This document shows, one piece after another, positions 6,033 through 40,734 of a stretch of 64,000 nucleotides of DNA. The translations under genes and the position numbers were made by a program. The stretch comes from Nostoc sp. GTDB taxonomy: Bacteria; Cyanobacteriota; Cyanobacteriia; Cyanobacteriales; Nostocaceae. Under the pieces are notes generated by a model. The model searched no databases and was not told the DNA's origin. It worked only from the letters and a program-made list of their open reading frames with translations. The DNA is taken from positions 3,953-67,952 of the forward strand of contig NZ_JBALDU010000068.1 in assembly GCF_036917235.1 (NCBI RefSeq), given 5' to 3'. The number at the start of each line of letters is the position of its first letter. Position 1 is the stretch's first letter.

Positions 6033-6039
6033 AAAGAGA

Positions 6040-6541: not shown

Positions 6542-6562
6542 TAGGCATAGCCCGCCGCAGGC
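6542..6562 (+). mobile_element. 21-nt SDR5-like element in HIP1 site, in-frame (adds RHSPPQA)
   Basis: GCG^TAGGCATAGCCCGCCGCAGGC^ATCGC. Confidence 0.85.
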
Positions 6563-6770
6563 ATCGCTCTTACCTATAGTATTGGTAGCTTGGGCATTGG
6601 CAATGACAATATTTCGCTCTCCAGCTATGTGCCTATTGGGGATGTATTCTAAGCCAGCCCAGTTACCTTTAACAGCAAGTGTTGTCACTTTAGCAGGCGG
6701 TTTAATTGGAGCTTTTAAACCGATAAGCTACAAGTTTATTCTGAGTTTAGGGCCAGTTTATACCTTTGCG

Positions 6771-6791
6771 TAGGCGTAGCCCGTCGTAGAC
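6771..6791 (+). mobile_element. 21-nt SDR5-like element in near-HIP1 site, introduces stops
   Basis: GCG^TAGGCGTAGCCCGTCGTAGAC^ATCGG. Confidence 0.85.
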
Positions 6792-7444
6792 ATCGGTTCC
6801 TTTCTCATGCTGGGGGCGGCGGCTGTGTTGCGGTTGGTTAATCCCGCAGAAGCACCAGTGGATAGACACCAAGCAGAAGTAGTAAAGTTGCCCTTACAGA
6901 AATTGGCTTTGATTTTAGTAACTGGTTTTGGTGTAGCGTGGGGTATCCGATTTCTCATGGATGTCTTGGGTAAAGTACTCAAAACCCAACTGAATACTGA
7001 TAATATTGATATGCAACTGGTGTGGATTGGAATAGCGATCGCAATTGCCAGCATACCAGCGGGAATTTTCGCCGTCAAAATTGGTAATAGTCAAGCAATG
7101 CTTTGTGGCATCTGTGCAATCATTCCCTCGTTATTGATAATGATATCTCTGGGCGCACAAATTCCGATAATTTTGTTAATCGTTGCGAGCTTTAGTTTAA
7201 TTGTCAACGGGGCAATTCCTTTTGCTTTAGGATTAGTACCCCAGCGGTGGGCGGGATTAGGAATTGGGATGTATTTTGGTGGGTTTGCTTTAGCGATGAG
7301 TTTGTTTGGCGTTATATTTCCCCAACTGCAACAGATAACACCTTTTGTCGGTGCTATTGGGGGTGGATTGGCATTTTTGGTTGCTGGTGTTTGCATTGCG
7401 GTGAGTGGCATTTTTGAAACGCAAAGGAACGCAGAGGTTTAACG

Positions 7445-7478
7445 CAGAGGGACGCAAAGTTATCTTCTGCGTCCCTCT
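7445..7478. terminator. Hairpin between convergent MFS and ftsH genes
   Basis: AGAGGGACGCA ... TGCGTCCCTCT arms. Confidence 0.45.
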
Positions 7479-7485
7479 ATGTATG

Positions 7486-7530
7486 AATTACGAATTACGA
7501 ATTACGAATTACGAATTACGAATTACGAAT
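7486..7530. repeat. STRR heptamer tandem (AATTACG)x6 overlapping the ftsH stop
   Basis: Six direct copies read from the sequence. Confidence 0.9.
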
Positions 7531-9403
7531 GAGTTACAGGTTTAACTTGACTCAACAAATCGTGCAGTTTTTCGCCTTCAATGACCTCTGTTTCTAAGAG
7601 TTGAGTAGCTATCGCTTCTAGCAAGTCTCGATTCTGTCTGAGAATCTCTAGGGCTTGTTCGTGGGCTGTCTCTACGATTTCCTTGACTTCGCTATCAATG
7701 GCTTTTGATGTGTCTTCACTCACCGCCCGCCGAGGATTAGCCCCACCATTACCCAAAAACATCGATTGTTGTCCTTGTTGGTAAGCCAGTGGCCCTAAAA
7801 CTTTGCTCATACCATAAGATGTTACCATCCGTTCTGCCAAGTCAGTTGCTCGTTGCAAATCGTTGGAAGCACCTGTGGTAATACTGTTAAACACAACCTC
7901 TTCGGCAGAACGTCCACCTAATAGAGTTGCAATCTGACCCCGCAGTTCCTCTTCATTCATCAAAAAGCGGTCTTCAGTTGGTAATTGCAGAGTGTAGCCC
8001 AAAGCAGCCATCCCACGGGGAATAATCGAAATCTTTTCTACGCGACCGTTTCCGGTTGTGAGCGCCCCGACCATTGCGTGACCAACTTCATGGTATGCAA
8101 CAATCTTTTTCTCAGTCTCGTTCATCACGCGACTCTTCTTCTCTAAACCGGCGACTACCCGCTCAATTGCTTCGGCAAAGTCTTCTTGAGCAACCTTTTC
8201 GCGCAGATTGCGCGCTGCCAATAATGCGGCTTCGTTCACCAAGTTTGCCAAATCTGCGCCAGCAAAACCAGGAGTACGAGTAGCGATCGCTTTTAAATTT
8301 ACATCATCTCCTAATTTTACCTTTTGAGCGTGAATCTTGAGAATTGCTTCACGACCAGATAAATCAGGACGGTCTACCAACACTTGGCGGTCGAAGCGAC
8401 CTGGACGCAGCAATGCCGGGTCTAGGGTTTCGGGACGGTTTGTAGCTGCTAGTACAATCACCGTTGCATCCCCAGCTGCAAACCCATCCATCTCAGTTAG
8501 TAATTGGTTGAGGGTTTGTTCGCGCTCATCGTTACCACCGTAGAAGCCATTACTACTACGAGACTTACCAATCGCATCTAATTCATCAATGAATACAATA
8601 CAGGGAGCTTGTTTTTTGGCCTGTTCAAACAAATCCCGGACTCTGGAAGAACCTACACCGACAAACAATTCTACAAACTCGGAACCAGAGATGCTGAAGA
8701 ATGGAACTCCTGCTTCTCCTGCGACGGCTTTCGCTAACAGTGTCTTACCAGTACCCGGAGGGCCAACTAACAACACACCTTTGGGAATCCTAGCGCCAAT
8801 TTGCGTAAACCGTGCCGGAGTCTTGAGGAAATCTACAATTTCTACTAACTCAGTTTTTGCTTCTTCTACCCCAGCCACATCTGCAAAGGTGATTTTCGCA
8901 GATTCGCCTTCAACGTAAACCTTAGCTTTGCTCTTACCAATGGAAAGCGCACCTTGCGGACCACCGCCACCACCACCACGGGCGAGAAAGAACTGCCAAA
9001 TACCAATAAAAATCAGTGGTGGAATCACCCAACTCAAGAGGGTTGTAAACCAAGTATTTTTGGGTGGCGGTGTAGCCGCGAACTCAACTCCCTTTTCTTC
9101 TAGAAGTTTGGGTAACTCTAAATCAAAGATTGGTGTCGTTGCAAACACTTGAGCCGGCTCGGCATTTTCTGCTTTTAATTGGTAAATAATCTGGTTTTGG
9201 CCAACGGAAACACGGCTGACTTCCCCTTCCTGTACTTGATGAATAAACAGGCTATAGGGAACACCAGTCGGGCCAGAAGCAAATAAACCAGGCAAAAATA
9301 AATTTAAGAGCAGGAATAGCCCTGATACTGCCAATAATATATTAGCAACGATCCGAAACCGAGGTGACTTAGGCTGTTCTTTAATTCCCATAGATTTTAC
9401 CAA
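7523..9403 (-). CDS. ftsH: ATP-dependent zinc metalloprotease FtsH
   Basis: Two TMs, Walker A GPPGTGKT, Walker [24 protein letters not shown] zinc motif. Confidence 0.97.
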
Positions 9404-9555
9404 TCCTTAAATAATGAAAACTAACTTGAAAATTGGGCATAGGGTATGGGCATTGGGCATTGCTTTTCCCCTGCTTCCCCTGTTCCTTGTTTCCCTTAAC
9501 GCTTTGAGAAACTTGATTAAAGACTAGTCAAAAATGCTGGTATATTCGCATCTGA

Positions 9556-9630
9556 GCAATGTCTACTACGGGCTGTAAGGCTCATGATGCTCGTTAGCCA
9601 TCTCTCTTTGGGAGAAGACTCGCTAACGGT
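9556..9630. repeat. SDR5-like element with nested inserts
   Basis: GCAATGTCTACTACGGGCT half-element followed by hairpin units. Confidence 0.5.
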
Positions 9631-9953
9631 AAGGCAAAGTTGTTCAGCTTGTCTCGATCTTCAACTATACTACCGTTTCTCATAATTTCTCCCATTTAGC
9701 AATGTTTGCAGCTTTTTTTACTTATTTATGTAACTAAACTTAACAATTTAATGAATCTTTGTGAACTAACGAGCAAATACGGTTTACCGTACTAAAAGAA
9801 TATGCATAGATTGGGAGACGCAAATAGAAATCCCTCACGAAGAGTTATTTTGGAGGCTTGGCGGAGCTTTCCTTGCTCCACTCCTGAATTCTTCAATAAT
9901 TTCACTTTGAACTTTGGAACAGCGTTCTCCATATATGCAGTTCCTCCTAGCTA

Positions 9954-11036
9954 TTAATGTCCATCATTTGACCAGTGGGGGCGATCGCTAGATAATTTAA
10001 TCACACCGTAAGAACGCCCAACCTGCCATAAAGTAGAATTTTCATAACTCGTTCGTGGCTGATTAATACTAACTGTCGTTCCACTAGCGTTTTTGATATT
10101 TAAGGTTCCTGACCAAGTAATTTCCCAATCAATTGCTAATCTTTGGGTATGACGAGAGGTAAGAACAGGTCGAAAAGCAATATTATAAGCAGACACCATT
10201 TCTTTAGCAGCTTGGACAGAACCAGCATTGGTGTAATGTAGCCAATTAATATCTACATTAGGCATAGGTGGAACATCTTTGGCAGCAATTTCATTATTAC
10301 TAATACGGAAAGCATAGTGCATTAAATAAGCTCGTTCTGAGGGGCGAAATACTGAAGAGATATCAATATTAGCTCCAGCATTTTTTAAAGCTTGCTCAAA
10401 AGCTTGGACTTTTTGACGGAAGGGAGAAGCTAAATCATCAATTAAGTCGCTGTCTGGGAAAAAATTAACCCAGGCTTTTCCACTCAGTCGTTGTCTTAAT
10501 TTTTTGGCGTATTCAGTTATGTTGTCTAAAGCCAACTCCAAATCAATCCCAAGCTTGGTTTTTGTTGTATTAGCAAGCTGTTGAGCTAATTCGGCTCGAA
10601 AATTGATGTCTCTGATTTTATAAGTTTCAGCTAGTCCTTTTGTACTGTTGGTGCCAAAGTCGCCATCAGCTACTAACGGTGGATTCAAACGACCGATCCC
10701 TGTTAAACTTTTTTGTAAATCTTTGATCTCGTTCTCTCCAAAGTTGAGATAGGTTAATAGTTGTTTACCGGCATTGGTATAGATAGCGAAATAAATTGCA
10801 AAACCTTGCTCTAACGCTTTTTTATAAGTAGCAGTATCGACAATTCCCGTTACTGTTAAAGCATTACTAGTCTGATAATCACGAGTTGCTTGAGCTGTAA
10901 TATTCCCAAAATCACCATCAACGGCAGCAATAGGGAAGTCGTAATCTAAAAGAAATTTCTGCCAAGCAGTTACAATTAGCCCTTCGGATTTTTTCTGGAG
11001 AGTCGGAAGTTGCAAAGCTTGAAGTTTAAAGCTCAT
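9954..11036 (-). CDS. Peptidoglycan-binding protein with C-terminal M15-like zinc peptidase
   Basis: DGDFGxxT PG-binding repeats; SRHTQRLAID and DRPHWS motifs. Confidence 0.7.
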   Translation of the reverse strand: MSFKLQALQLPTLQKKSEGLIVTAWQKFLLDYDFPIAAVDGDFGNITAQATRDYQTSNALTVTGIVDTATYKKALEQGFAIYFAIYTNAGKQLLTYLNFGENEIKDLQKSLTGIGRLNPPLVADGDFGTNSTKGLAETYKIRDINFRAELAQQLANTTKTKLGIDLELALDNITEYAKKLRQRLSGKAWVNFFPDSDLIDDLASPFRQKVQAFEQALKNAGANIDISSVFRPSERAYLMHYAFRISNNEIAAKDVPPMPNVDINWLHYTNAGSVQAAKEMVSAYNIAFRPVLTSRHTQRLAIDWEITWSGTLNIKNASGTTVSINQPRTSYENSTLWQVGRSYGVIKLSSDRPHWSNDGH

Positions 11037-24426: not shown

Positions 24427-25182
24427 TTAGACTTTTTGAAGTTGAAGGTTCTTTCGGAATAGTTCTTGAACATTTTTCCAAGCATCGGCAGCAGCTTCGG
24501 CATTGTAGCTGGCGCGATGGTTGCAGAAAAAGCCATGTCCTGCACCGGGATAACGGAAAATAGCATGAGTAATCTGATTTTTCTTCAATTCAGCCTCAAT
24601 CTGTTCTGTATGTTCTAAGGGGATTCCCTGATCGTCAAGTCCAAAGAAGGCGTAAATAGGGCCTTTAATCTCTGGAGTGCGGGTGATGGTTGGTTCTCCA
24701 CCGCCGGGAGTTGAGTTGGGAATACCGCCGCCATAGAAAGAAGCTGTAACTTTGATATCTGGTAAAGTGGCAGCTAGATAAACGACATGACCACCAAAGC
24801 AGAAACCAATAGAGCCGATCGCATCTCCTTGTACATTTGGTAGAGTTCTTAAATAAGCGATCGCAGCCTTAATATCACTCAATATTTCCTCTGCTGTTGT
24901 CTGCTCTTTATACCCTCTTCCTTGCTGAACATCTTCAGGAGTGTATCCACCCTCAAAACCGGGGGCGGTGCGTTGAAATAAAGTTGGTGCGATCGCCACA
25001 TACCCCTCTTTGGCAAATTTCTCAGCAACTTCCCGAATGTGAATATTAACCCCAAAAATTTCCTGAATCACAATAACGGCTGGGAAGGTTCCCTTTTTTA
25101 TTGGTTCAGCTAAGTAAGCATCAATTTGCAAATCTCCGTTAGGGACTTTAACTTGAGCAGTACGAATTTCTGTGTTTGTCAT
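24427..25182 (-). CDS. Dienelactone hydrolase family protein
   Basis: QEIFGVN, GFCFGG, AGHGF motifs. Confidence 0.92.
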   Translation of the reverse strand: MTNTEIRTAQVKVPNGDLQIDAYLAEPIKKGTFPAVIVIQEIFGVNIHIREVAEKFAKEGYVAIAPTLFQRTAPGFEGGYTPEDVQQGRGYKEQTTAEEILSDIKAAIAYLRTLPNVQGDAIGSIGFCFGGHVVYLAATLPDIKVTASFYGGGIPNSTPGGGEPTITRTPEIKGPIYAFFGLDDQGIPLEHTEQIEAELKKNQITHAIFRYPGAGHGFFCNHRASYNAEAAADAWKNVQELFRKNLQLQKV

Positions 25183-26694: not shown

Positions 26695-26949
26695 CAGGAC
26701 TTACACAACTGTCACAAGCAATGGTGCGGCGTAGCCGTGCCGAGCGCCAAACAACCTAAAAGGCAAACATGGGAACATTGGGACGCTTTAGTTGTTGAAT
26801 TAAATAATTTGACAGCAATCCATGCTTAATTTTATAAATTGTTTGACCACTTTTATAAGCTAAATCTTTAAGTCGAAGCCAAACTAAAATAGCGCAAGCA
26901 ATATGATTTCTTTGAATACGAGCCTTACGGCATTGACATGATTCAATGC
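26695..26949 (-). mobile_element. IS701-family transposase 3' remnant with terminal sequence
   Basis: IESCQCRKARIQRNHIACAILVW; CAGGACTTACACA end at 26695. Confidence 0.8.
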
Positions 26950-27229
26950 GTAAGGATTCAGGTCTAATATTGAGGAAGTAAAGAAGGGCGAGACAGGGAG
27001 TTACTAGAATTAGCAATTATAAACGTTCTACTTCTTGCTGTAGTTCTAAGATTGTTTTCTGTAACTCACATATTGCCTTGCTCTGCTCAATAATTATCTC
27101 TACCAGTTCTTCTTTTGATAACTGGTTCAAGCTTTCTCGGTCTAAATCTTGAGGCAGGTTTTGGTTCATATTTGTGATACTCCCCCTCAAGTGTCCCCTT
27201 TGTCAATACTCTGCCACCTGAATCCTTAC
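26950..27229 (-). mobile_element. Internally deleted IS66-like mini-element
   Basis: 14-bp perfect TIRs GTAAGGATTCAGGT; frame from 27169 reads MNQNLPQDLDRESLNQLSKEELVEIIIEQ; no TSD. Confidence 0.75.
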
Positions 27230-27330
27230 CACGAGTTAATTCTTCAATGGCAAGTGGGATAGCTACAGAGCGGAGATGTCTAATAACCATAATCCTGGCT
27301 TAAAACAGCGATGATTGCAGATTAGGGGAG

Positions 27331-28677
27331 CTAAGTGCTAATCGCAGCTAATTCAGATTTTTGTGAAATTTGCAATTCCTCAAATTGAACTACTTCGTCA
27401 GCACAAGTTTTACCAGCTTCAAAGCAGGCTTCAAGAGATGCTCCTTTGATGTAATCACCTGTTAGATAAAGCCCTGGAAGTTGGGAAAGCTGAGTTTTTA
27501 GATTGGTGGTGAATTGAGGATAATTGCTAGTATAGGCACACAATCCAACTGGATGATATTTAGCAACGTATCGCATACGATCAGATCCGCTAATGGGAAT
27601 ATATTTATTTAGAGCTTCTTCTGCTAAACGAATGAGTTCTTCAGAAGTAGCTCCATCCTTCATGTAGCGGCGACCTGTACGACCACTAAAGGTATAGCGA
27701 ATAACGTTGCGTTCGTTAATACCGTAAGCTCCGGCATTGCTGATAGGATATGTGTCATTAAATACTAAAGCCCGTACTTTTTTTGAAAAAACTTCGCGAG
27801 CGTACTCTGCTACCACTACAGTTACAGGATAGTAGTTAACCAAGTCTAAAGTTTCAGCTAGCTCTGAACTTTGAGGTGCAACTATTTTAGAAGATACTGA
27901 TGCAGGAGTTGCCAATATAACACCCGCATATTCTAATTCTTGCACACCAGATAAATCCCGTAATCGTAGACCGACAACACGTCCATTGCGAACCATCAAC
28001 GACTCTACACGACTATTCAATCGTACAGGCCCAGTTTTAGCAAACTGTTCCAATACAGGTTGCATTCCTTGAGTCAACTGGTCGTAAGTATCAAGAACCA
28101 TGCGGAGATTACTCCCCAGATTTCCAACATAAGCTTCTTCTGGTTCTGCTCCATTCATCCGAACGGTCATAGGTCGGATAACAACCTGACAAAAATTGGG
28201 GCTGAAATATTCACTCAGAGGTTTATCTCCTAGACGTTGACAGAAGTCAGTGAAGTAAGGGCCACCCAAAAGACCATTTTGAAGGTTTCGCATGACGGCT
28301 CCACAAACATTCCAGAACCGCCAGATATCTTTAGGAGTCCCTTGGCTCAAAAATTCTAGGGTTGCTTTGACACGGCGACTGTTATCTAAAGTTAGTAATT
28401 TATTGTTACGAACTTGAGAAGAGTTAAGCCCAAAAAACTCATAGGGATTGTTCCCCATTGCAGTTGTAAACTCTCGGAAAAGATTGTATGTTCTACCAAT
28501 ATTTTTTCCTCCTAACTGTACTGGTCTATCTCCTAATAGAAATGGGCGAATGCGTCCACCAATGGCATCATCTTGCTCAATTAATTCAACATTGAAGCCA
28601 CGTTGTCGTAGATAGTAAGCCGTAGCAATACCACTAGCACCACTACCAATAACTGCGTATGTGTTTAAATTCATCAT
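27331..28677 (-). CDS. FAD-dependent oxidoreductase (HemY/amine oxidase superfamily)
   Basis: GSGASG Rossmann fold, GGR motif, GLYLTGDY..GASLEAC tail. Confidence 0.85.
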   Translation of the reverse strand: MMNLNTYAVIGSGASGIATAYYLRQRGFNVELIEQDDAIGGRIRPFLLGDRPVQLGGKNIGRTYNLFREFTTAMGNNPYEFFGLNSSQVRNNKLLTLDNSRRVKATLEFLSQGTPKDIWRFWNVCGAVMRNLQNGLLGGPYFTDFCQRLGDKPLSEYFSPNFCQVVIRPMTVRMNGAEPEEAYVGNLGSNLRMVLDTYDQLTQGMQPVLEQFAKTGPVRLNSRVESLMVRNGRVVGLRLRDLSGVQELEYAGVILATPASVSSKIVAPQSSELAETLDLVNYYPVTVVVAEYAREVFSKKVRALVFNDTYPISNAGAYGINERNVIRYTFSGRTGRRYMKDGATSEELIRLAEEALNKYIPISGSDRMRYVAKYHPVGLCAYTSNYPQFTTNLKTQLSQLPGLYLTGDYIKGASLEACFEAGKTCADEVVQFEELQISQKSELAAIST

Positions 28678-28834: not shown

Positions 28835-29125
28835 TTAATCTTCTAAGACAGTAATGGTTACTTTGCGATAAGCTTGATCTCGAAATGGTAAAACTTCCAA
28901 GTAACGTGGATCTGTTAACCATCCTCGTACATGCTCAACTGAGGGGAACTTTAATATTCGGATAGATTCTTCCTCAAAAGAACCGAGCAATCGCTCCTTG
29001 GTGTGCATACGTAAAACTACTTCTGCTCCATATTCATCACGAATTGCTACAGCCCGTTTTTTGTAATTCTCAGCAGCTTCCGATGCATGAGGATTAGGTG
29101 TTAATGTTACCAGCACATGAACCAT
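28835..29125 (-). CDS. DUF1330-like small alpha/beta-barrel protein
   Basis: ILKFPS..VRGWLTDPRY....RDQA pattern. Confidence 0.7.
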   Translation of the reverse strand: MVHVLVTLTPNPHASEAAENYKKRAVAIRDEYGAEVVLRMHTKERLLGSFEEESIRILKFPSVEHVRGWLTDPRYLEVLPFRDQAYRKVTITVLED

Positions 29126-29203: not shown

Positions 29204-30169
29204 TTAGACTAGTTGCGATTCTAAAACTTCTTGTAACTCAATCAATGTCTTCTGCAAAGATTTAACATCTTCAACACTAAAAACTAGAGCAGACGGAACA
29301 ATCTTTTTAATTAACTTAGACAAGATTTTCCCTGGTCCGACCTCAACAAAAATTTCAATTCCTTGTTGTTGGATATAACGTATCGAAGCCTCCCAATGAA
29401 CAGCAGAAGTTATTTGCTGCTCTGATAACTGCCTCCATTCATAACCCTTGAGCATTGGTCCTGCTGTAACATTTGAGATTACAGGTATAGTTGCATTATT
29501 GAATTGAAACTTACGAACTATATGAGCAAACTGTTGTGCAGCTTCTTGCATTAAAGGAGAATGAAAAGCCCCTGAGACAGCTAAAGGGATAGCTTTCAGA
29601 TTATTTTCAAAGGCATAAAAAAGAGCTTCTTCTATAGAAGCATTATCACCGGATATAACAATTTGTTCTGGTGAGTTCAAGTTAGCAGGAACTAACACAC
29701 CATTTGGTTGCACATTTTCTCTACATAGTTCTTCTGCTTGTTTTAATGTAACTCCTTTTAGAGCCAACATACCACCCTCCTGCGTTTTTGACATTAAGGC
29801 TCCTCTAACTTCAATCAAGCGTATAGCATCTGCAAAAGAGAGTACGCCAGCAGCAACTAATGCAGCATATTCTCCAGCACTATGTCCACAGATAAATTTT
29901 GGTTTTATAGGAAAATGTTCTTGAAAAACACTGTACAGGGCTATGTTCGTTGTTAATAAACAAGGTTGTGCAATGGAGGTTTCCATCAAATTTTCTTCCA
30001 AACCGAAAAATGAGAGATTCCGAATATTTAAATTTGTAATTTGTTCGGCAGTCTCAAAAATTTTTTCTGCTGAGATAAACTTCTTAGAAATTTCTAATCC
30101 CATTCCTACATATTGAGAACCTTGTCCGGGAAAAACTAACGCGTAATTGTTTGAAGTTAATCGTTTCAT
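29204..30169 (-). CDS. fabD: Malonyl-CoA:ACP transacylase (second copy)
   Basis: FPGQGSQ, GHSAGEY, RG..M, VSGAFHS, EVGPG. Confidence 0.93.
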   Translation of the reverse strand: MKRLTSNNYALVFPGQGSQYVGMGLEISKKFISAEKIFETAEQITNLNIRNLSFFGLEENLMETSIAQPCLLTTNIALYSVFQEHFPIKPKFICGHSAGEYAALVAAGVLSFADAIRLIEVRGALMSKTQEGGMLALKGVTLKQAEELCRENVQPNGVLVPANLNSPEQIVISGDNASIEEALFYAFENNLKAIPLAVSGAFHSPLMQEAAQQFAHIVRKFQFNNATIPVISNVTAGPMLKGYEWRQLSEQQITSAVHWEASIRYIQQQGIEIFVEVGPGKILSKLIKKIVPSALVFSVEDVKSLQKTLIELQEVLESQLV

Positions 30170-30251
30170 AGTTTAAAGAAACCTCCATTGATATCAAGAT
30201 ATTTAAATCTAAACTTTTTGACGTAACTTTTAAAGATATAAAAATCTTTTT

Positions 30252-30521
30252 CTAGCTATTATTTAATGCTGATTCCAATAATTGATAGGCATTTTGTACT
30301 GTTTTAATTCTTCCAGCTTGAGTTGTAGATATCTTCACACCAAATTTTTGCCGTATTAGCATCACAATTTTGACAATATCCACGGAAGATATTCCTACAT
30401 CATCTACCCAAGAAGCATCAGGAAGAAGCTTATTTTGGTCTATGTTAAGTCTTTGGGCAACAGCATTACAAAATTCATAGAATGAAACTGGCTTAGAGTC
30501 TTTTTCATTGATTGCAACCAT
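30252..30521 (-). CDS. Atypical, non-acidic acyl carrier protein
   Basis: 89 aa; GISSVD at the phosphopantetheine site; F..KI and IKTV ACP pattern. Confidence 0.82.
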   Translation of the reverse strand: MVAINEKDSKPVSFYEFCNAVAQRLNIDQNKLLPDASWVDDVGISSVDIVKIVMLIRQKFGVKISTTQAGRIKTVQNAYQLLESALNNS

Positions 30522-30603
30522 GTTCTTCTCCTTCTCTATTTTGAGAGTTTCTTAAATATAGTAGTACTTTTCAATCAGTATTTGAGTAACCAATAGAGCT
30601 AAT

Positions 30604-31386
30604 TTAGTTAATAAACCATTCAATTGTTAGCTCAAAAAGTTCTTGTTGATGGAATGGAAAAGAATGATGCGCTCCTTCTATTACCTGTAATTTTGGTGGT
30701 TTATTAGAAGTCATTTGTGCTTGCTCTACTAATTGCTTTACCTCTTGTAATGGAACTGTTGCATCTTCAGTTCCATGAATAATTAACAAGGGCTGATTAG
30801 CTTGCTCAACCTCTTTTAACATATCAAGCTCAAAAGATTGCTTAAGAATTTCAGGGCCACAGGTCATAAGTTCTCCGTGGTAGAGAAATTCTGATTCATC
30901 ACCCTCTTCTAAAAGAGAAAATGAATCTTCTCCAATCAATCGCATAACAGTGCCTGACAAATCAGTAAATGGTGCCCATGCAACGGTCTTATATATCTCT
31001 GAATTTCTCGCACTTTCTCGGATAACAGTTACTGCACCTAAGCAATGTCCTACTAATCCAATTGCGTTTGGGTCAACACCATCTATCTTCTTAACTAAAT
31101 CAATTGCAGCTTCTAAATCTTCTAATTCTCTATCTAAAGTTAGGTCTACTAAATCACCATCACTATCACCTGAACCTGTAAAATCAAATCTAAATACTGA
31201 TAAATTATGTTTCACAGCATAGCGAGCAAATTCTACAAAGCGCCGACTTCCACCAATCTTAGTACCTGCAAATCCATGACATACAATTAAACACGGTCTG
31301 GGTTGATTGACTTGCCCATAATGCATAACACCCACAAGGTTTTGCCCACGCTTATTTTGAAAAACAAATGCTTCCATGTTTGACAT
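30604..31386 (-). CDS. Alpha/beta hydrolase with Cys nucleophile
   Basis: CHGF, RFDFTGSGDS, GHCLG elbow, HGTEDATV, GAHHSF. Confidence 0.88.
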   Translation of the reverse strand: MSNMEAFVFQNKRGQNLVGVMHYGQVNQPRPCLIVCHGFAGTKIGGSRRFVEFARYAVKHNLSVFRFDFTGSGDSDGDLVDLTLDRELEDLEAAIDLVKKIDGVDPNAIGLVGHCLGAVTVIRESARNSEIYKTVAWAPFTDLSGTVMRLIGEDSFSLLEEGDESEFLYHGELMTCGPEILKQSFELDMLKEVEQANQPLLIIHGTEDATVPLQEVKQLVEQAQMTSNKPPKLQVIEGAHHSFPFHQQELFELTIEWFIN

Positions 31387-31405
31387 CTTTTTTCTGCTAT
31401 AAATT

Positions 31406-31831
31406 TCAATGCTTCAGACATATTGCAATTGCGATCGCCGTTGCATAATCTTTTTCATGGCTAATACTTACATCCAAATGATGAGCTGCAATATTTTGCC
31501 AAAAAGGAAGAGCAGTTTCATATAAAAAAACAATTGGTTTTCCAGAACTATTGTGTAATATTTCTATGTCAACCAATTCAATTTGACTAATGCCACTTTC
31601 CAAAACCTTTATAATTGCTTCTTTACAAGCGAATTTTCCTGCTAATCGTTGAAGTCGATGATTCTCATTTGGAAGAGTTAAAACATCTTTCCATTCTTGT
31701 TCTGTTAACCAAACTCCTATTGGTGCATCCGCTAAGTCTTTTATATCTTTGATAGAGATAAAATCTATTCCAGTTTTGACTTGAATTGGTGACTGGGCAG
31801 AAGACGCACAAATTTTGTCTTTTAGAAACAT
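31406..31831 (-). CDS. acpS: AcpS-type holo-ACP synthase
   Basis: GID, AGKFACKEAIIK, GKP, SISHE motifs; 141 aa. Confidence 0.88.
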   Translation of the reverse strand: MFLKDKICASSAQSPIQVKTGIDFISIKDIKDLADAPIGVWLTEQEWKDVLTLPNENHRLQRLAGKFACKEAIIKVLESGISQIELVDIEILHNSSGKPIVFLYETALPFWQNIAAHHLDVSISHEKDYATAIAIAICLKH

Positions 31832-31864
31832 TTGATTTTTGTTTTGTGATGTGTAAACTACCCT

Positions 31865-32863
31865 CTAGCAAACAAACGATTTGTCCCAGCGAATTAGACT
31901 TGCTCCACAAGTCAGCCCTGCGCCAAACCCAACCATCATCACATAGTCGCCTGTGACAATTCTCCCTTCTTGAACAGCATCAAATAAAGCAAGTGGAATT
32001 GAAGCAGCAGAGGTATTTCCATATTTATGAAGGTTGCACATGAAACGTTCAAATGAAATTCCCAAATATACAGCAACTTCTTCAATAATGTGAATGTTAG
32101 CCTGATGAGGAATAATCAGCTGAATATCTTCAACAGAAATATTTGCTTTATTGCAGGTATCGGTGATGGTATCGCATACCATTGGTACTACAACCTGAAA
32201 TAATTCTTCCCCATTCATTTTCAGAAAATGCTGCCTATTTTTGACAGTTTGAATTGAAGTTGGAAGTGTAGTACCCCCAGCAGGCATATACAACAGATGT
32301 TTACCTGAACCATCAGCACGCAGCACAGAAGCTAAAAAACCATTTTCTTCTTGCCCTGACTCAAGCAAAACTGCTCCTGCACCATCTCCAAACAGCACAC
32401 ATGTAGAACGGTCTTGCCAATCTATACATCTGGAGAGAACTTCTGCCCCTATAACCAAGGCATTACGAACTGTACCAGTTTTGATAAACTGTGCTGCTGT
32501 TTCTAGACCATAGACAAATCCTGAACAGGCCGCAGATATATCAAAGGCAAAGGCATTCAAAGCTCCTATATTATTCTGCACCTGACAAGCAACTGATGGA
32601 AATGGTGTATCAGGCATCATAGTTGCGACTAGAATCATTTCTACTTCTAATGATTCGATACCGCGTTTATCCAACACCTGTTTTGCAGCAGCTGTTGCTA
32701 AAGTAGATGTGCTTTCTTCAGGAGAAGCAATTCGCCGTTGAACTATCCCAGTTCTAGTACGAATCCACTCATCAGACGTATCCACTATTTTAGCTATCTC
32801 ATGGTTTGTCATGATCTGAGTAGGTAGGTAAACTCCTAAAGCAGATAACTTTACAGGTATCAA
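31865..32863 (-). CDS. fabH: Beta-ketoacyl-ACP synthase III (second copy)
   Basis: WIRTRTGI, AACSGF (Cys), PHQAN (His), GNTSAAS (Asn), GFGAGL. Confidence 0.95.
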   Translation of the reverse strand: MIPVKLSALGVYLPTQIMTNHEIAKIVDTSDEWIRTRTGIVQRRIASPEESTSTLATAAAKQVLDKRGIESLEVEMILVATMMPDTPFPSVACQVQNNIGALNAFAFDISAACSGFVYGLETAAQFIKTGTVRNALVIGAEVLSRCIDWQDRSTCVLFGDGAGAVLLESGQEENGFLASVLRADGSGKHLLYMPAGGTTLPTSIQTVKNRQHFLKMNGEELFQVVVPMVCDTITDTCNKANISVEDIQLIIPHQANIHIIEEVAVYLGISFERFMCNLHKYGNTSAASIPLALFDAVQEGRIVTGDYVMMVGFGAGLTCGASLIRWDKSFVC

Positions 32864-33237
32864 ATTGACCTCCCACTTGACAATCGAATATTAGGTTTAC
32901 CATCCACTAGAGTTAGTAGAAGACAGCTCTTACCACTAGTTTCAGAGTCCCAACAGTAAATTGGAATGCCAGAGTGCTGTGAAAAGTCTGCTGTTACTTT
33001 TTGTAATTCGTCAAAGTTAACACTTTTAACTTTAACTAGCTTGGTTCTTAAAACAGCTTCTGCAAGGATGAATACGGAGCCAATCTCACTTAAATCTCTA
33101 TTTTTAAGTGAAATATTATTGCCAGATTTTAATTCATCCACTTCTCTATCAGAAATTTCTAAGCCAAGAATGTTAACTGCTTTTTTAATATCGCAAGTCT
33201 CTAAATTTAGCTTGGATTTCGGCATAGAGCTATTCAT
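32860..33237 (-). CDS. Orphan 125-aa protein, stop overlapping the fabH start (ATGA)
   Basis: Uninterrupted ORF in AT-rich DNA with a 4-bp overlap. Confidence 0.65.
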   Translation of the reverse strand: MNSSMPKSKLNLETCDIKKAVNILGLEISDREVDELKSGNNISLKNRDLSEIGSVFILAEAVLRTKLVKVKSVNFDELQKVTADFSQHSGIPIYCWDSETSGKSCLLLTLVDGKPNIRLSSGRSI

Positions 33238-33798: not shown

Positions 33799-34953
33799 TT
33801 AAACAAAAGAGAACTGGCTGGTATTATTGAGATTGAAATTTGTAGCGACTTGTCCTTCAATTAAACCTATAAGTTCAGGAAGAATGTTTGAAGTGCCAGC
33901 AAAGTATATAGATGTCCCACTTGGAAGGCTGCCAAAAGATTGAACCAATAAATAATCTGATGCCGAACCTTTGAGTTCGATAGTATCCAAACCAGACTGA
34001 AAGTCTTTGATAAGCGCGAAATCTTGATCTCCAATGGATGATGGATTGCCGTCATTGTAGTAAACAGCATTCTTATCACCTAGAACGAAAGTATCTCTTG
34101 CTTGACCGCCTGTAAGAACGTCAATTTCACCCTTTCCAAGGCCAAAACTAGCAACAACGGGATTGACACCAATTAGTCTGTCTGCTCCCGCACCACCATT
34201 CAAGGTATCGCTTCCACTATCACCTTCGAGGGTATCATTGCTATCAGCACCAGCCAAAATGTCATTATCACTACCACCAGCCAACAAATCGTTGCCTTTA
34301 CCACCATCGAGATTATCATTCCCGACATCACCATTTAAAAAGTCTACGCCATCATTTCCCAACAGTACGTCGTTACCTACATCGCCAAAAATGCGATCGT
34401 CTCCTTTAGCACCGACTATAAAATCGTTACCGATTCCACCATTAAGCCTATCGTTACCACCTCCACCAGTAACAGTGTCATCCCCAGCACCAGTATAAAG
34501 AAGGTCGTTACCGTCACCTGCATCAATCACGTCAGTGCCATCACCGCCATAGATAATGTCATTGCCAGCCTCACCAAAAACTATGTTCAACTTACCTTCA
34601 AGATAAATAGTATCGTTGCCAGAACCACCATTGATAGTATCGTTGCCAAGTCCAGATTTGATGACATCGTCACCGTTTCCACCTGCAAGAAGGTCGTTTC
34701 CTGCACCACCATCTATAAAATCATTACCATCTTGCCCATTAACCAAATCATTGCCATCACCCGCATCAATAGAGTCGTCCCCTTCTTCTGAAGGAATAAT
34801 ATCGTTCCCACTACCTGCAATAATTAAGTCGTTCCCAGATCCAGTCAGGATCAGGTCATCACCTCCAAGGGCAACAACAGTGATATCATTCTGTGAGTCT
34901 ATCAGTTGGATAGAATCATTTCCTTGAGTTCCGGTAACAAATTGGCTTGCCAT
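33799..34953 (-). CDS. RTX calcium-binding protein
   Basis: About 20 GGxGxD repeats; DTFVLGD...DFALIKDF C-domain. Confidence 0.9.
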   Translation of the reverse strand: MASQFVTGTQGNDSIQLIDSQNDITVVALGGDDLILTGSGNDLIIAGSGNDIIPSEEGDDSIDAGDGNDLVNGQDGNDFIDGGAGNDLLAGGNGDDVIKSGLGNDTINGGSGNDTIYLEGKLNIVFGEAGNDIIYGGDGTDVIDAGDGNDLLYTGAGDDTVTGGGGNDRLNGGIGNDFIVGAKGDDRIFGDVGNDVLLGNDGVDFLNGDVGNDNLDGGKGNDLLAGGSDNDILAGADSNDTLEGDSGSDTLNGGAGADRLIGVNPVVASFGLGKGEIDVLTGGQARDTFVLGDKNAVYYNDGNPSSIGDQDFALIKDFQSGLDTIELKGSASDYLLVQSFGSLPSGTSIYFAGTSNILPELIGLIEGQVATNFNLNNTSQFSFV

Positions 34954-35819: not shown

Positions 35820-36776
35820 CTACTTTGGTTTATGTGCTGCCACTGTTGGAAATATACGTGCATTATCATAAACAAAGTTTATGTCATCAAATCCAGCTGT
35901 TTCTAGTTGTACTTTTGTAGTGGAACAACTTCTAAAACATCTCCACTTGGAATTTAAAATATCAGCAAAAATGATATTTTCTTGTAGTAGATTATTTTGA
36001 TCTATGCGGTTTATATCTCTCTCTGATTTAGAGTCTATATCTAAGGGTGGTGTTAAAAAGCTAGTTACTAATAACCCACCTGGAGCCAACGCTTTGAAAA
36101 ACTGATGATACAATTGTGTAACTTTATTATCATCAGCTTCATAAATATTTAAACCGTTACTAGTTAATAAGTTAAATTTGTTTTCAAAGGGTAGATTCCA
36201 TGCATCTTCTTGAAAGAACTCAACTTTAGCAGATAAAGTGTATTGTTTTGCTAATTCTTTAGCACCATTAAGCATATTTGGATCAATATCGATTCCAATC
36301 AAACGGAAATTATTTATTCCCGTAAAATCCAAACTTAATAAATCTCTCATAAAACCACAAGGCAAAGAAGCTAAAACTGTTCCCTCTCGAACATATTTTT
36401 GAATAATTTTAGTGAAATGCACAGACCTTTCCTGTGTGGCAAGAAAGCTTGGACATTTATCAAAAAGTGTCTTTTCAATTTCTGTAAAATGACGACCTTG
36501 TGGATCAATACCACTAATTCTCCCTGTATACGGATGACAAATCATGTAATCTGCCCAATCCCCGTCTAATCCTTGATTTTTTAATAAAAATTGACCATAA
36601 GGACAATCAGCTAATTCGTCCACAATTATTAATTGTTTTTCAACGCTAACATGGGGTTTATCTCCTGCTCGACGAATTCTTTCTTTAATAGTTTCTACAG
36701 TTTGTTCGAGTGTTTCATCTTTATAACCATGTGAAAGAATACGTTGATCATTGAGATATTTAGATTGGCTAGTCAT
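35820..36776 (-). CDS. Class I SAM-dependent methyltransferase
   Basis: ASLPCGFMRDLL motif I variant, GIDID, LAPGGLLV. Confidence 0.85.
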   Translation of the reverse strand: MTSQSKYLNDQRILSHGYKDETLEQTVETIKERIRRAGDKPHVSVEKQLIIVDELADCPYGQFLLKNQGLDGDWADYMICHPYTGRISGIDPQGRHFTEIEKTLFDKCPSFLATQERSVHFTKIIQKYVREGTVLASLPCGFMRDLLSLDFTGINNFRLIGIDIDPNMLNGAKELAKQYTLSAKVEFFQEDAWNLPFENKFNLLTSNGLNIYEADDNKVTQLYHQFFKALAPGGLLVTSFLTPPLDIDSKSERDINRIDQNNLLQENIIFADILNSKWRCFRSCSTTKVQLETAGFDDINFVYDNARIFPTVAAHKPK

Positions 36777-37037
36777 TTTTACGTACCTACTCTAAAGAAG
36801 TGTAATGTGTATATACTTGTTGTTTGCGGCTTATGCTCTGAGAGCTTTTTTACTGCGTGCCGCAATGTTGCGAATTTGTTGAAAGGATTGAGGTTGACGT
36901 AGGCAGGGGATAAATTGTGTAATTAAGTCTGCTCAAATTATTTATCTCTGGGAATTTTACGGTTTATCACTCACCAATTTAACTTGAGCTTTTATTAGTC
37001 CAAGACATCAGCAATTTAGCTTTGATAGTCTCTTTAT

Positions 37038-38531
37038 TTAGAGTTTAATTGTGACAGTCTTGATTTCAGTATATTCCTGAAGTCCGTACTCACCCAGTTC
37101 TCTGCCAATCCCAGATTGCTTAAACCCACCAAAAGGGGCAGCTGCGTCGAATATTTCATAGCAATTAACCCAAATAGTTCCAGCCCGTACATTATTTATA
37201 ATTGCATGAGCTTTAGAGATATCCTTAGTCCATACTCCTGCAGCTAGCCCATAAATTGTTGCATTTGCTCGCTGTATTACTTCGTCTATGTCTTTAAATT
37301 TGATAATGCTCATAACTGGCCCAAAAATTTCCTCTTGGGCAATCTTCATATAGTCTTGAACATCAGCAAAAACCGTAGGCTCTATGAAAAATCCATTATT
37401 ACCTACTTGACTACCACCACATAACAGCCGAGCACCTTCGGATATACCCGACTCAATGTAGCTTACTACTTTATTAAGTTGCATTTGATCTATCACTGGA
37501 CCTTGTTCTACTTTTGCATCAAATGGGTTCCCAACAATACGTTGCTTAGCTCGTTCAACACTCTTAGCAACAAACTCGTCGTAGCATTTCTCTTCAACAA
37601 ATAGCCTAGATCCCGCAGCACAACACTGCCCTTGGTTGAAAAACAGAGCGGAATGTGCCCCTTCAATTGCTTGATCCATATCGGCATCAGCAAAGACAAT
37701 ATTAGGACTTTTACCACCCATCTCTAGTGTTACACGCTTAAGGTTGCTCTTAGCGGCAGCTTCCATAACTAAGCGTCCTACTTCAGTCGAGCCAGTAAAA
37801 GCAACCTTATCGATATCTGCATGCCTTGCGATCGCAGCACCAGCAGTTGGCCCATAGCCTGGCAGAATATTAACGACACCTGGGGGAAAACCCGCTTCAA
37901 CGATTAGCTCACCCACTCGAAGCGCTGTTAAAGGTGTCTGTTCAGCAGGCTTGAGAACAACTGTATTGCCTGCTGCTAAAGCTGGTGCAAGCTTCCATGC
38001 TTGCATTACTAATGGAAAGTTCCAAGGAATAATCTGACCAATAACTCCGATTGGTTCATGTCTGGTATAGCTGAAAAACGGACTATTGGTTGAGAGAGTT
38101 TTACCCTGAATCTTATCAGCCCAGCCTGCGTAGTAGCGATAGCAGGCAATAGTCAGCGGTAAGTCAATATTAAGTGAATCTGTCAACGGTTTACCGTTGT
38201 CGAGAGTTTCAAGCCTTGCTAGCTCATCTGCATGTTCTTCTATCAAATTAGCTAATCTATATAACAATTTGCCACGATTACTACTAGACATAGTGGCCCA
38301 TTCCCTGGATTCAAAAGCAGTACGAGCAACTTTAACTGCTCGATCAACATCGCGAACATCAGCCTCGGCAATCTCGCAAATGATTTCGCCAGTAGCTGGA
38401 TTAATTGTCTTGAATGTTTTGCCAGAAATACTATCGATCCACTCGTTGTTAATGAGCAGTTTAGTAGTTCTGATTTTGAGGTACTGCTCCGGTTTTGATT
38501 CTGTTAACATGAAAAATTTCCTCGTATTCAA
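37038..38531 (-). CDS. NAD-dependent aldehyde dehydrogenase
   Basis: [41 protein letters not shown]. Confidence 0.95.
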
Positions 38532-39498: not shown

Positions 39499-40734
39499 CT
39501 ATTTAAATAAAGACGAAAAGCTCAAAGCATTTTGAGGTAAAAATCGGTAGTTCCAGTCATCATTAAATTCAGGCTTTTTTAAATGGACTTTTGACAATTG
39601 GTTGTCAGTGACGTTCATGTCGATCTGATACTTATTTTCATTAGATGGATTTCTAATTATCAGTTCTTTATTGGTAGTAGTAGTACTTATTAAATTAATT
39701 GCTACTCCTTTAATGGTTAGTGGTCTACCTCTCCAGTTTTCTGTAATCAGACAGAACATACGATGTTCTATGTTGTTCCACTTACTTGTACCAGCCGGAA
39801 AATGTGCAAACTGAATGATAAGTCGAATTTCGTTAGCAAGCTTTTGAAGTTGGGTTTTCCATAACCCATCAGGCTCACTACAGTCTGCTGTAATCAACAA
39901 TTCTGTAGAATTATTGTAAATTTTTTTACCCATATCTTGCCACCATCGACGAATTGACTCAACAGTAACCTCTGCGGTGTTATTGTTAATGCCCACATTT
40001 ACCCACTCCTGACTTGTAGTCAAATCATAAACTTCACACGGAAGAGCATTTAAAAGTTCTTGTTCGGGAAAATAATTAGTTTTAGGGTTGACAAATTGTT
40101 TTTTTGATTGGCATTTTTCTACATCATTTTTATAGTTTCCAAGAGCTTCTTTTTTCTTGATATCAAGTGAAATTATAAGTTGACCACGGGCTTGAAAATT
40201 TTGCACTTGATCGTGGATACGTTGAAATTGAACATCCCGATTGCAGTTAGAGTCTCCTTCTTTAGTTTTACGGTTGTTTTGTAGGCTGTAACCCAGTTGA
40301 TACAATAAGGAAGCAACTTTTCTTGGACTGATGATATGACCCTTAGCTTGCAATTTTTGAGCTATTTTTGTGCTGCTTTCACAAGTCCAACGTAGAGGTG
40401 AGTCTGAATTGACACAATTCACCGGTTGAATTAATGCCTCCAGGTCTGGAATTAAGGTTTGGTCGGTGTCTAAAAGACGTTTTCTACCGCCTCCTTTACA
40501 TCGAGTTTTCTCCTGAAATTGGGTGTGTTTGATTTGAGTATCTGGCTCAATTTCGAGTTCACGGATTCCAACCCGAATCGTTTTTGGTGACAGACCAGTT
40601 GCTTGAGAAACTTGCGTAATTCCACCTCTACCGAATGCAATAGCCTCTGCGGCAGCCCACAGACGTAGCGATCTCTCGTTCAGATGAGGATAAAGGGAAT
40701 CAAACTTAGCTTTGAGAAACTCTCTTGCTGACAT
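39499..40734 (-). CDS. Divergent ISAzo13-family (Rhodopirellula-type DDE) transposase
   Basis: LNERSLRLWAAAEA, GGGRK, PLRWT, IRRWW, HFPAGTSKWNNIEHRMF, NWRGRPL. Confidence 0.85.
   Translation of the reverse strand: MSAREFLKAKFDSLYPHLNERSLRLWAAAEAIAFGRGGITQVSQATGLSPKTIRVGIRELEIEPDTQIKHTQFQEKTRCKGGGRKRLLDTDQTLIPDLEALIQPVNCVNSDSPLRWTCESSTKIAQKLQAKGHIISPRKVASLLYQLGYSLQNNRKTKEGDSNCNRDVQFQRIHDQVQNFQARGQLIISLDIKKKEALGNYKNDVEKCQSKKQFVNPKTNYFPEQELLNALPCEVYDLTTSQEWVNVGINNNTAEVTVESIRRWWQDMGKKIYNNSTELLITADCSEPDGLWKTQLQKLANEIRLIIQFAHFPAGTSKWNNIEHRMFCLITENWRGRPLTIKGVAINLISTTTTNKELIIRNPSNENKYQIDMNVTDNQLSKVHLKKPEFNDDWNYRFLPQNALSFSSLFK

Follow-up and report, generated by a model that had tools for sequence, protein, structure and literature searches.

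An accessory gene cassette of Nostoc sp. probably encodes a priming-only type II synthase with inverted carrier-protein recognition

We describe a small, horizontally mobile gene set in a Nostoc genome that probably encodes a self-contained, mobile, priming-only type II synthase, in which the polarity of acyl carrier protein (ACP) recognition is inverted and which would be insulated from the fatty acid synthase (FAS) of the host. The set lies in a stretch of 64,000 nucleotides of genomic DNA (the window), and its genes are listed in Table 1. GC content is 0.34-0.39 over 28-40 kb, as compared to ~0.40-0.46 in most of the remaining window. The stop of orf125 and the start of FabH overlap by 4 nt, and KR, DH, ER and an elongating KS are all absent from the cassette core. 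The cassette is accessory, being present in 3/151 related genomes. A search of sequencing runs found no RNA run containing the stretch, the best holder being a lichen metagenome DNA run, and the literature searched on the cassette, on the pairing of a basic ACP with an AcpS of its own and on DUF1330 with KAS III yielded nothing relevant.

Table 1. Genes of the cassette and the flanking transposase, with window coordinates
Feature	Coordinates	Strand	Basis or remark
orf125	32860..33237	-	ORF; small conserved protein without assigned function
KAS III (FabH)	31865..32863	-	Pfam ACP_syn_III + C, NCBIfam
AcpS-type phosphopantetheinyl transferase (PPTase)	31406..31831	-	Pfam ACPS domain
Alpha/beta hydrolase, Cys nucleophile	30604..31386	-	Pfam/NCBIfam
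Acyl carrier protein (ACP)	30252..30521	-	Pfam PP-binding domain
Malonyl-CoA:ACP transacylase (FabD)	29204..30169	-	TIGR00128
DUF1330 protein	28835..29125	-	Pfam
FAD amine-oxidase / protoporphyrinogen-oxidase-like flavoprotein	27331..28677	-	Last gene of the co-directional run
ISAzo13-family DDE transposase	39499..40734	-	Flanks the low-GC island containing the cassette

The ACP, whose minus-strand ORF includes GISSVDIVKIVMLIRQKF, belongs to a conserved family that extends past the window. A first-pass annotation of this DNA had called the protein charge-reversed, with 10 K/R against 9 D/E by hand count. The sequence strings that it quoted were present in minus-strand ORFs where it had placed them, and composition analysis returned the same count, with a pI of 7.84 (4.05 for E. 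coli AcpP) and an overall charge near neutral (+1). From the pantetheine Ser through helix III (Ser..+30), the net charge is +5 in the window protein and +4 to +6 across 40 family members, whereas E. coli AcpP, the AcpP of the host and ACPs from outgroups range from -7 to -10. Residues K51, R57, K59, K63, R71 and K73 are found at the positions of E41, E47, E49, E53, K61 and T63 of E. coli AcpP, and Ser45 at that of Asp35, with the motif SSV in place of DSL. Reversal does not describe the whole protein, however. D40, D41 and D48 (E30, D31 and D38 of E. coli) are retained and the N-terminal half is still acidic; the inversion affects only loop II, helix III and the part of helix II beyond residue 41.

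The AF2 model of the ACP (pLDDT 87.5) has the canonical four-helix fold (helices 14-25, 46-60, 66-70 and 75-88), helix II starting at Ser46, and aligns with E. coli and H. pylori ACPs at a TM-score of ~0.8-0.9 (target-normalised). The protein scored 37.4 bits against PP-binding (PF00550; cut-off 20.8) and fell below the equivalog cut-off of TIGR00517 (53.2 vs 70.45). Since its best PDB profile matches are all FAS or mitochondrial ACPs, the ACP is derived from AcpP and not from a PCP. PCP or PKS ancestry was considered and ruled out, the top profile and fold matches being all of FAS type.

The AcpS ORF includes GIDFISIKDI and encodes a protein of 141 aa, which scored 41.4 bits against PF01648 (ACPS; cut-off 25) and 68.7 against TIGR00556 (cut-off 45.35), and lies below the housekeeping equivalog TIGR00516 (53.2 bits vs a cut-off of 59.8). 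Arg14 of B. subtilis AcpS contacts Asp35 and Asp38 of the ACP and orients Ser36 (PMC3447402), and E. coli AcpS, with docking residues Arg15/22/26/29/30/69/115, requires an acidic helix II and modifies strongly negative ACPs only (PMC12551638). Alignment bore out the proposal that this Arg is replaced by Asp in the cassette enzyme. Asp29 of the window protein aligns with Arg15 of E. coli (Arg14 of B. subtilis and B. anthracis), a position where all 15 family members have Asp and all nine canonical enzymes have Arg, and the position of E. coli Arg30 is occupied by V/I/L in 15/15 and by K/R in 9/9, respectively. The docking helix alpha1, which is shortened and acidic in the window protein, has a net charge of -1 to -4 in the family, compared to +1 to +5 in canonical enzymes. 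The Mg/CoA-binding residues Asp9, Glu58 and Lys62 (E. coli) are invariant in both groups (15/15 and 9/9), and the catalytic residues of the window protein are D23/E71/K75.

Both residues of the Arg14/Asp35 pair have changed as had been suggested, but no mirror swap has taken place. Position 35 of the ACP is Ser and not a base, and Asp38 is retained, so AcpS Asp29 needs another partner, which is probably a new Lys/Arg lower on helix II of the ACP. The first-pass annotation had also given insulation as the reason for a dedicated AcpS and FabD. For AcpS this needs correcting. The cassette AcpS is the only AcpS-type PPTase of the genome and the other PPTase is HetI/Sfp-like, so a dedicated AcpS is no shield against a host AcpS; what it gives the cassette is self-sufficiency, and the Sfp-type enzyme of the host could well modify the cassette ACP. 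The host also has its own FabH and FabD and an acidic AcpP outside the cassette.

The ACP-docking patch of E. coli FabH is basic and is formed by K214, R249, K256 and K257, as Zhang et al. reportedly found in 2001. This patch had been described as neutral or acidic in the window protein, around an intact Cys-His-Asn triad, and alignment to E. coli FabH agreed on both points. The FabH ORF includes HQANIHIIEEVAVY and LFQV, and the protein scored 426.3 bits against NF006829 (cut-off 249) and 390 against TIGR00747 (cut-off 292.1). Relative to E. coli, K214 is replaced by Q223, R249 by H258, A253 by E262, K256 by V265 and K257 by Y266, and the resulting patch (E219, Q223, H258, E261, E262, V265 and Y266) has a net charge of -3 vs +4 in E. 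coli; His258 may be partly protonated. Patch charge was -4 to 0 in the 55 family clusters and +2 to +5 in 64 close non-members, with no overlap. Q214/H249 (E. coli numbering) was found in 44/55 family clusters and K/R at 256 or 257 in 0/55, the exceptions to the pattern being three clusters that keep Arg249 and six with Lys/Arg at 214. Since residue 249 is Arg in 145/150 of the nearest FabH representatives (Lys in 1/150 and His in 0/150), the change in FabH lies far above chance.

The catalytic triad C113/H253/N283 and the CoA-site residues W33/R37/R152 (E. coli Trp32/Arg36/Arg151) are intact in all FabH family members aligned. The small primer pocket is E. coli-like, with F88 in the window protein, and agrees with F87, L142, F157, L189, L205 and M207 of E. 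coli FabH. On the strength of its sequence, the window FabH is expected to condense acyl-CoA with malonyl-ACP.

FabD (TIGR00128, 296.6 bits vs a cut-off of 260.9) retains S97, R122 and H203 (Ser92, Arg117 and His201), and GHSAGE replaces GHSLGE. In the published FabD-AcpP interface, K189/R190 contact Glu41 of the ACP and K286/R287 contact Asp35/Asp38. The K189/R190 region of the window protein is an acidic FENNL-K, and the K288/K289 pair (K286/R287-type) is retained; across the family, K189 is lost and the region is acidic, R190 is replaced by K, E or T, K279 is K or Q, and the 286/287 pair is mostly basic. FabD thus appears to be altered just where it meets ACP residue 41 and to be basic where the ACP keeps Asp38, mirroring K41/D38 of the ACP. 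Interfaces between ACPs and their partners are plastic, however: the E. coli FabD mutants R287A and K286A/R287A stay fully active, which indicates that losing single salt bridges need not confer specificity. Family-wide comparison of AcpS, FabH and ACP upheld the idea that these three partners differ from canonical enzymes in complementary directions. The shift in FabD at the residue-41 contact is an addition to these three.

We propose that the synthase is made up of AcpS, FabD, FabH, ACP, the Cys-nucleophile alpha/beta hydrolase and the DUF1330 protein. AcpS would convert apo-ACP to holo-ACP, FabD would load malonate onto holo-ACP, and the Cys hydrolase would eventually take the acyl group off the ACP, hydrolysing it or passing it to an acceptor; this last step may fall to a PapA5-like condensation enzyme in some copies. 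The product is likely to be a short beta-ketoacyl unit released by the Cys hydrolase. AcpS, FabH and the residue-41 region of FabD have lost Arg/Lys and gained Asp/Glu, so the four proteins should recognise one another. The acidic AcpP of the host would fit the cassette enzymes poorly, and the basic-patch FabG, FabZ, FabI and FabF of the host would fit the cassette ACP poorly, so that the reactive beta-ketoacyl intermediate would be kept out of fatty-acid elongation. We infer this functional insulation from published electrostatic rules; the direction and strength of the binding preference, the primer and the product are proposals as well. More tentatively, the system could be fully orthogonal, with a basic ACP that is seen only by its own AcpS, FabD, FabH and hydrolase, all with acidic surfaces, and is invisible to the host FAS and to canonical AcpS.

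The hydrolase has a Cys nucleophile (GHC115LG), Asp208 and His240/241, and this triad does not vary among the window copy and the eight loci aligned with it (nine copies); the gene was found in 14/14 loci, and the encoded enzyme is likely to act in off-loading or transfer. Its net charge is -18 in the window and -8 to -21 over all copies, and among the neighbours of the ACP it is the most constant one. This could indicate that a downstream partner, and not insulation, drove the co-evolution: the ACP would have turned basic for the acidic Cys hydrolase, a condensation-type acyltransferase or an NRPS, AcpS, FabH and FabD would have followed by compensation, and orthogonality to the host FAS would be incidental and maybe partial. 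A PapA5/Condensation-like enzyme is indeed encoded in some copies, and one family FabH adjoins a C-A-PCP-TE NRPS in which helix II of the PCP is basic and where ACP, AcpS and FabD are absent. However, acidic charge is common among cytosolic proteins, which makes the net charge of the hydrolase weak evidence, and the presence of a dedicated FabD and AcpS is left unexplained unless host enzymes fail on the ACP, which is insulation again. We regard this explanation as unlikely.

Both cyanobacteria and Firmicutes have copies of the FabH-AcpS-Cys-hydrolase-ACP core, most of them accompanied by FabD and DUF1330. The gene order FabH-AcpS-hydrolase-ACP is kept from Nostoc to Paenibacillus and Tumebacillus; FabH adjoins AcpS, and the ACP gene comes after that of the hydrolase, in nearly all copies. 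The DUF1330 gene accompanies the cassette in Nostoc and in Firmicutes (dN/dS 0.05-0.10). A Cof-type HAD phosphatase gene is present in most non-Nostoc copies, no HAD remnant was found in the window, and the flavoprotein gene is restricted to Nostoc copies. Homologues of orf125 were found in cyanobacterial copies only (loci L001-L008, L029 and L030; dN/dS 0.17-0.22); the protein gave no Pfam or NCBIfam match, and its AF2 model (pLDDT 46.9) was too poor for a fold search. All eight cassette genes are under purifying selection, with dN/dS of 0.05-0.23, and these values together with the intact catalytic residues rule out a pseudogene or drift. The idea that the substitutions might be sporadic was rejected, the signatures being co-conserved across cyanobacterial and Firmicute copies.

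The FabH family forms a monophyletic clade (support 1.0) with a long stem. All copies therefore come from one event, and their co-conservation amounts to one evolutionary replicate. The covariation that the first-pass annotation had suggested looking for was seen as family-wide co-conservation, but pairwise signal within the family was uninformative, since copies that keep Arg249 in FabH (L029 and L030) have a nearly identical ACP, in which only K63 is changed to Q. FabH homologues without Arg249 outside the family are few and have other partners; the idea that they repeat the pairing of acidic patch and basic ACP independently was rejected, as none adjoins an ACP and one is a lipoyl-domain fusion.

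A single origin and a long stem would also be consistent with a frozen accident of one lineage, in which a burst of substitutions on the stem was kept for stability, the enzymes are cross-reactive and there is no functional orthogonality. The tolerance of FabD interface mutants to salt-bridge loss and the retention of Arg249 or Lys214 in some family members would fit such a history. Yet four proteins are altered precisely at mapped contacts, in a complementary direction and at no catalytic site, and low dN/dS preserves these residues in cyanobacteria and Firmicutes. E. coli AcpS, moreover, fails on weakly negative ACPs (PMC12551638), and we consider an accident of this kind quite improbable. 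It is very improbable that FabH docks no ACP, and instead joins two CoA thioesters or uses an acyl group bound to the hydrolase, the ACP serving FabD and the hydrolase only and the basic patch having decayed by disuse: the non-ACP partners of other homologues lacking Arg249 and the family member next to the NRPS would suit this, but the patch is conserved as Q/H/E with acidic gains and not as random decay, the FabH gene keeps company with those of AcpS and the ACP, and malonyl-ACP is the extender to be expected from a FabD that has kept its malonyl-binding Arg.

To our knowledge, characterised type II systems all follow one rule, by which an acidic helix II of the ACP docks on a basic enzyme patch. 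If the cassette is indeed a synthase of inverted polarity, this natural inversion over four proteins would mean that recognition polarity is arbitrary and can be reset by co-evolution. The inversion would likewise account for the way in which a side pathway protects a FAS intermediate (beta-ketoacyl-ACP) from FabG and FabF, and synthetic biology would gain an ACP, a PPTase, an acyltransferase and a ketosynthase that form a ready orthogonal set for insulated pathways or site-specific protein labelling. Were the system fully orthogonal, the cassette could cross phyla and, free of cross-talk, yield a reactive metabolite of beta-ketoacyl origin in whichever host received it. The cassette family marks an uncharacterised small-molecule pathway common to Nostocales, Gloeobacter, Paenibacillus and Tumebacillus.

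The cassette shares with ordinary type II FAS its four protein families, whose catalytic residues are the same, and the fold of the ACP. Its FabH and FabD score above the NCBIfam cut-offs, and the expected chemistry, from acyl-CoA and malonyl-ACP to beta-ketoacyl-ACP, is alike. The cassette differs in that polarity is inverted on the docking surfaces of ACP, AcpS, FabH and part of FabD, and in that reductase, dehydratase and elongating KS are missing from the core, where their place is taken by a Cys hydrolase, DUF1330 and, in most cases, a HAD phosphatase. The charge of helix II governs which PPTase acts on a carrier (PMC12551638). PCPs and many PKS ACPs in which helix II is neutral or basic reportedly need an Sfp-type enzyme, a rule attributed to Mofid et al. 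in 2002. The principle would be the same in the cassette, since helix II charge decides which PPTase works, but here a basic carrier is paired with an AcpS-type enzyme bearing an acidic docking helix and not with an Sfp-type one; no case of such a pairing was described in the literature searched.

As far as is known, AcpR and the ACPs of aryl-polyene clusters stay acidic and use the PPTase and FabD of the host. They are second, pathway-specific ACPs beside their own partner enzymes, AcpR with a bacterial serine palmitoyltransferase (PMC9386255, PMC8041823), and the cassette resembles them in encoding a dedicated ACP together with its partners. BioZ, PqsD and the lipoyl-FabH fusion are, like the cassette FabH, instances of a KAS III scaffold recruited to a side pathway. 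BioZ retains the arginines at its tunnel entrance and uses ordinary malonyl-ACP, whereas the cassette FabH, judged by its gene context, keeps the use of an ACP but with an inverted interface.

Relative to the real E. coli fabH, fabD, acpP and acpS sequences, which served as the numbering reference, the ACP of the cassette differs from AcpP by D35S, E41K, E47R, E49K and E53K, gains K63, and retains D30, D31 and D38. The first-pass annotation, all of whose quoted sequence strings are present in the window, had correctly described the loss of the Asp before the Ser, the basic helix II and the count of 10 Lys/Arg against 9 Asp/Glu (pI 7.84). A search of 5.8 billion proteins placed the ACP in a tight family of 40 clusters (median pI 8.8) from Nostoc, Fischerella, Scytonema, Richelia, Gloeobacter, Paenibacillus and one Bacilli MAG. 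The 30-residue segment beginning at the pantetheine serine had a net charge of +5 in 37 of these and of +4 or +6 in the remaining 3, compared with -7 to -10 in outgroup ACPs and in the AcpP of E. coli and of the host. The AlphaFold model, based on 31 sequences (pLDDT 87.5), has helices at 14-25, 46-60, 66-70 and 75-88, with Ser46 starting helix II. A PCP identity was ruled out, as the closest structural matches were the E. coli and H. pylori ACPs and the top matches of the family profile were FAS and mitochondrial ACPs only. The protein is an AcpP descendant with altered charge.

Both the ACP and the AcpS score below the housekeeping equivalog cut-off and lack the charge features by which canonical docking is defined. 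Asp29 of the window AcpS stands, as had been claimed, at the position of E. coli Arg15 and B. subtilis Arg14, which is Asp in 15/15 family members versus Arg in 9/9 canonical enzymes. The position of E. coli Arg30 is V/I/L in all 15 versus K/R in all nine, and the net charge of the docking helix is -1 to -4 versus +1 to +5; catalytic D9, E58 and K62 are invariant throughout. In B. subtilis, Arg14 contacts ACP Asp35 and Asp38 and orients Ser36 (PMC3447402). Because ACP position 35 is now Ser and D38 is retained, the AcpS change is not a mirror swap of the Arg14/Asp35 pair, and the new Lys/Arg residues further along ACP helix II are more plausibly the partner of the acidic AcpS helix. The E. coli enzyme docks through Arg15, 22, 26, 29, 30, 69 and 115 and is efficient only on ACPs of net charge around -14 (PMC12551638). 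The host Sfp-type PPTase may modify the cassette ACP regardless.

The FabH and FabD are bona fide members of their families. In FabH, K214, R249, A253, K256 and K257 correspond to Q223, H258, E262, V265 and Y266, so that the basic patch is lost and the Cys-His-Asn triad kept, as first proposed; also unaltered are the residues that bind CoA (W32/R36/R151) and those of the small, acetyl-type primer pocket (F87, L142, F157, L189, L205, M207). The docking residues reportedly come from Zhang et al. 2001. Among the 150 nearest representatives of 1.8 billion proteins, position 249 was Arg in 145, Lys in one and His in none, and position 214 was Lys or Arg in 130. A second search set 55 family clusters, with identity of 57% or more, against 64 close non-members, and the net charge of a seven-residue patch fell into disjoint ranges, -4 to 0 and +2 to +5, respectively. 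Covariation within the family was uninformative: the few FabH members that retain Arg249 or Lys214 are accompanied by no informative change in their ACP.

Two other FabH arrangements were observed. At L031, a locus with no ACP, AcpS or FabD near its family FabH (K214/H249 subtype), this gene directly follows a C-A-PCP-TE NRPS gene with a basic PCP helix II (GGHSMLAVRLLRHIEKSF). In a Biotin_lipoyl-FabH fusion that occupies the E2 place, the basic ACP patch is absent (SNFDA), and the lipoyl-fused KAS III may be primed directly from the lipoyl arm.

The published E. coli FabD-ACP structure has contacts K279-E30, R287-D35/D38 and K189/R190-E41, and E. coli FabD interface mutants are described as tolerant. 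Family FabD has lost or acidified the K189/R190 region (FENNL-K, LERDI-E, LDEEV-T), and its 286/287 pair is still basic. These changes seem to mirror those of the ACP residue by residue, and the pattern, absent from the first-pass annotation, is the strongest hint that changes followed contacts. Family FabD also has new basic residues in place of E. coli I136 (K) and G283 (K/R), adjoining the pocket for ACP Leu37, which is Val in the cassette ACP.

A pattern search of one-genome-per-species contigs returned 19 ACP-encoding loci, of which 14 were family members (seven Nostoc, two Paenibacillus, and one each of Fischerella, a cyanobacterial MAG, Aphanocapsa, a Bacilli MAG and Tumebacillus) and five encoded ordinary acidic ACPs. 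The ACP and Cys hydrolase were present at 14/14 family loci, including those cut by contig ends; FabH, AcpS, FabD and DUF1330 are the further core genes. Among 151 genomes belonging to the same family, just 3 have the ACP, and one cassette copy lies on a Nostoc linckia plasmid. Sporadic substitutions, which had been expected under drift, were not found, the ACP, AcpS and FabH signatures running family-wide, and dN/dS of 0.05-0.23 in all eight genes (Nostoc and Fischerella copies compared) rules drift out. The FabH clade is monophyletic (support 1.0) with a stem of 0.28 versus a median internal branch of 0.07, indicating that the signature arose once; the co-conservation is a single evolutionary event.

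All non-Nostoc copies (Fischerella, Aphanocapsa, Firmicute) carry a Cof-type HAD-IIB phosphatase between ACP and FabD, and the gene is cleanly absent from every Nostoc copy, leaving no remnant. A tandem 4-oxalocrotonate-tautomerase protein is an addition of the Firmicute copies, accompanied by an SDR and EamA transporter in Tumebacillus and by an MFS transporter in Paenibacillus; the extra genes of Fischerella-type copies encode an MFS exporter, PapA5/Condensation-like acyltransferase and aldo-keto reductase. A variant without FabD (L029, L030) runs orf119, FabH (Arg249 kept), AcpS, Cys hydrolase, ACP, HAD, PapA5/Condensation-like enzyme and aldo-keto reductase.

The eight closely spaced, co-directional genes lie in a region of GC 0.34-0.39, lower than most of the remaining window and flanked by an ISAzo13 transposase; orf125 had no family match. 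The host, a Nostoc-like cyanobacterium (7.67 Mb), has its own FabH-FabD pair on a different contig, and its AcpP is of the ordinary acidic kind (pI 4.05). Its one further PPTase is HetI/Sfp-like, so the cassette AcpS is the only AcpS-type enzyme in the genome. The RTX repeat proteins may be linked to the cassette or merely co-resident on the island, and the short downstream ORFs may be insertion-sequence debris at its other edge. At the other loci compared, the methyltransferase and aldehyde dehydrogenase have no counterparts near the cassette.

Positions of features in the window and at the loci compared
Locus	Feature	Position	Strand	Remark
Window	Dienelactone hydrolase	24427-25182		Ordinary, separate gene
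Window	Short overlapping ORFs	26756-27290		No family matches; directly downstream of flavoprotein gene
Window	Cassette	33237 to 27331	minus	orf125, FabH, AcpS-type PPTase, alpha/beta hydrolase, ACP, FabD, DUF1330, FAD amine-oxidase-like
Window	FabD	29204-30169	minus	GHSAGE, family motif, where GHSLGE is usual
Window	ACP-FabD gap	30170-30251		82 bp, no HAD-IIB remnant
Window	Cys hydrolase	30604-31386	minus	Nucleophile-elbow Cys115 (GHCLG), invariant in the nine copies aligned
Window	RTX calcium-binding repeat protein	33799-34953		Directly upstream of cassette; one copy in window
Window	SAM methyltransferase, aldehyde dehydrogenase	35820-38531		Between cassette and ISAzo13 transposase
L001-L007 (other Nostoc)	Two RTX repeat proteins	about 3.8-7.0 kb		Upstream of cassette
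L008 (cassette copy)	HAD-IIB phosphatase	4147-5016		
L025	Biotin_lipoyl-FabH fusion	6001-7458		485 aa; directly follows 2-oxoacid dehydrogenase E1-alpha and E1-beta genes
L026	Biotin_lipoyl-FabH fusion	1606-3063		As L025
L029	Cassette variant	4609-10750		
L031	NRPS and family FabH	826-5999		

In the proposed pathway, AcpS would activate the ACP, FabD would load it with malonate, FabH would form a short beta-ketoacyl-ACP, and the acidic hydrolase would off-load the acyl group by hydrolysis or transfer. The core lacks a reductase, a dehydratase and an elongating synthase, so its intermediate is of a kind normally consumed at once by host FabG; the inverted interface would block this consumption. 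The neighbouring enzyme types (phosphatase, tautomerase, alpha+beta-barrel DUF, reductases, flavoprotein, exporters) allow the speculation that the product is a small exported keto/enol or lactone-type metabolite. Complementary co-evolution is shown at the level of sequence, and insulation from the host fatty-acid enzymes is, in our judgement, moderately likely; we place it no higher because of the single event, the Arg249/Lys214 exceptions, the tolerant FabD mutants and possible modification by the host Sfp-type enzyme.

Literature searches, limited in coverage, returned no natural basic ACP whose AcpS or FabH is correspondingly acidic. The nucleophile motif of the hydrolase is GHC(L/M)G, accompanied by an invariant Asp and His, and an elbow Cys nucleophile is common to this alpha/beta hydrolase, dienelactone hydrolases and PHA synthases.
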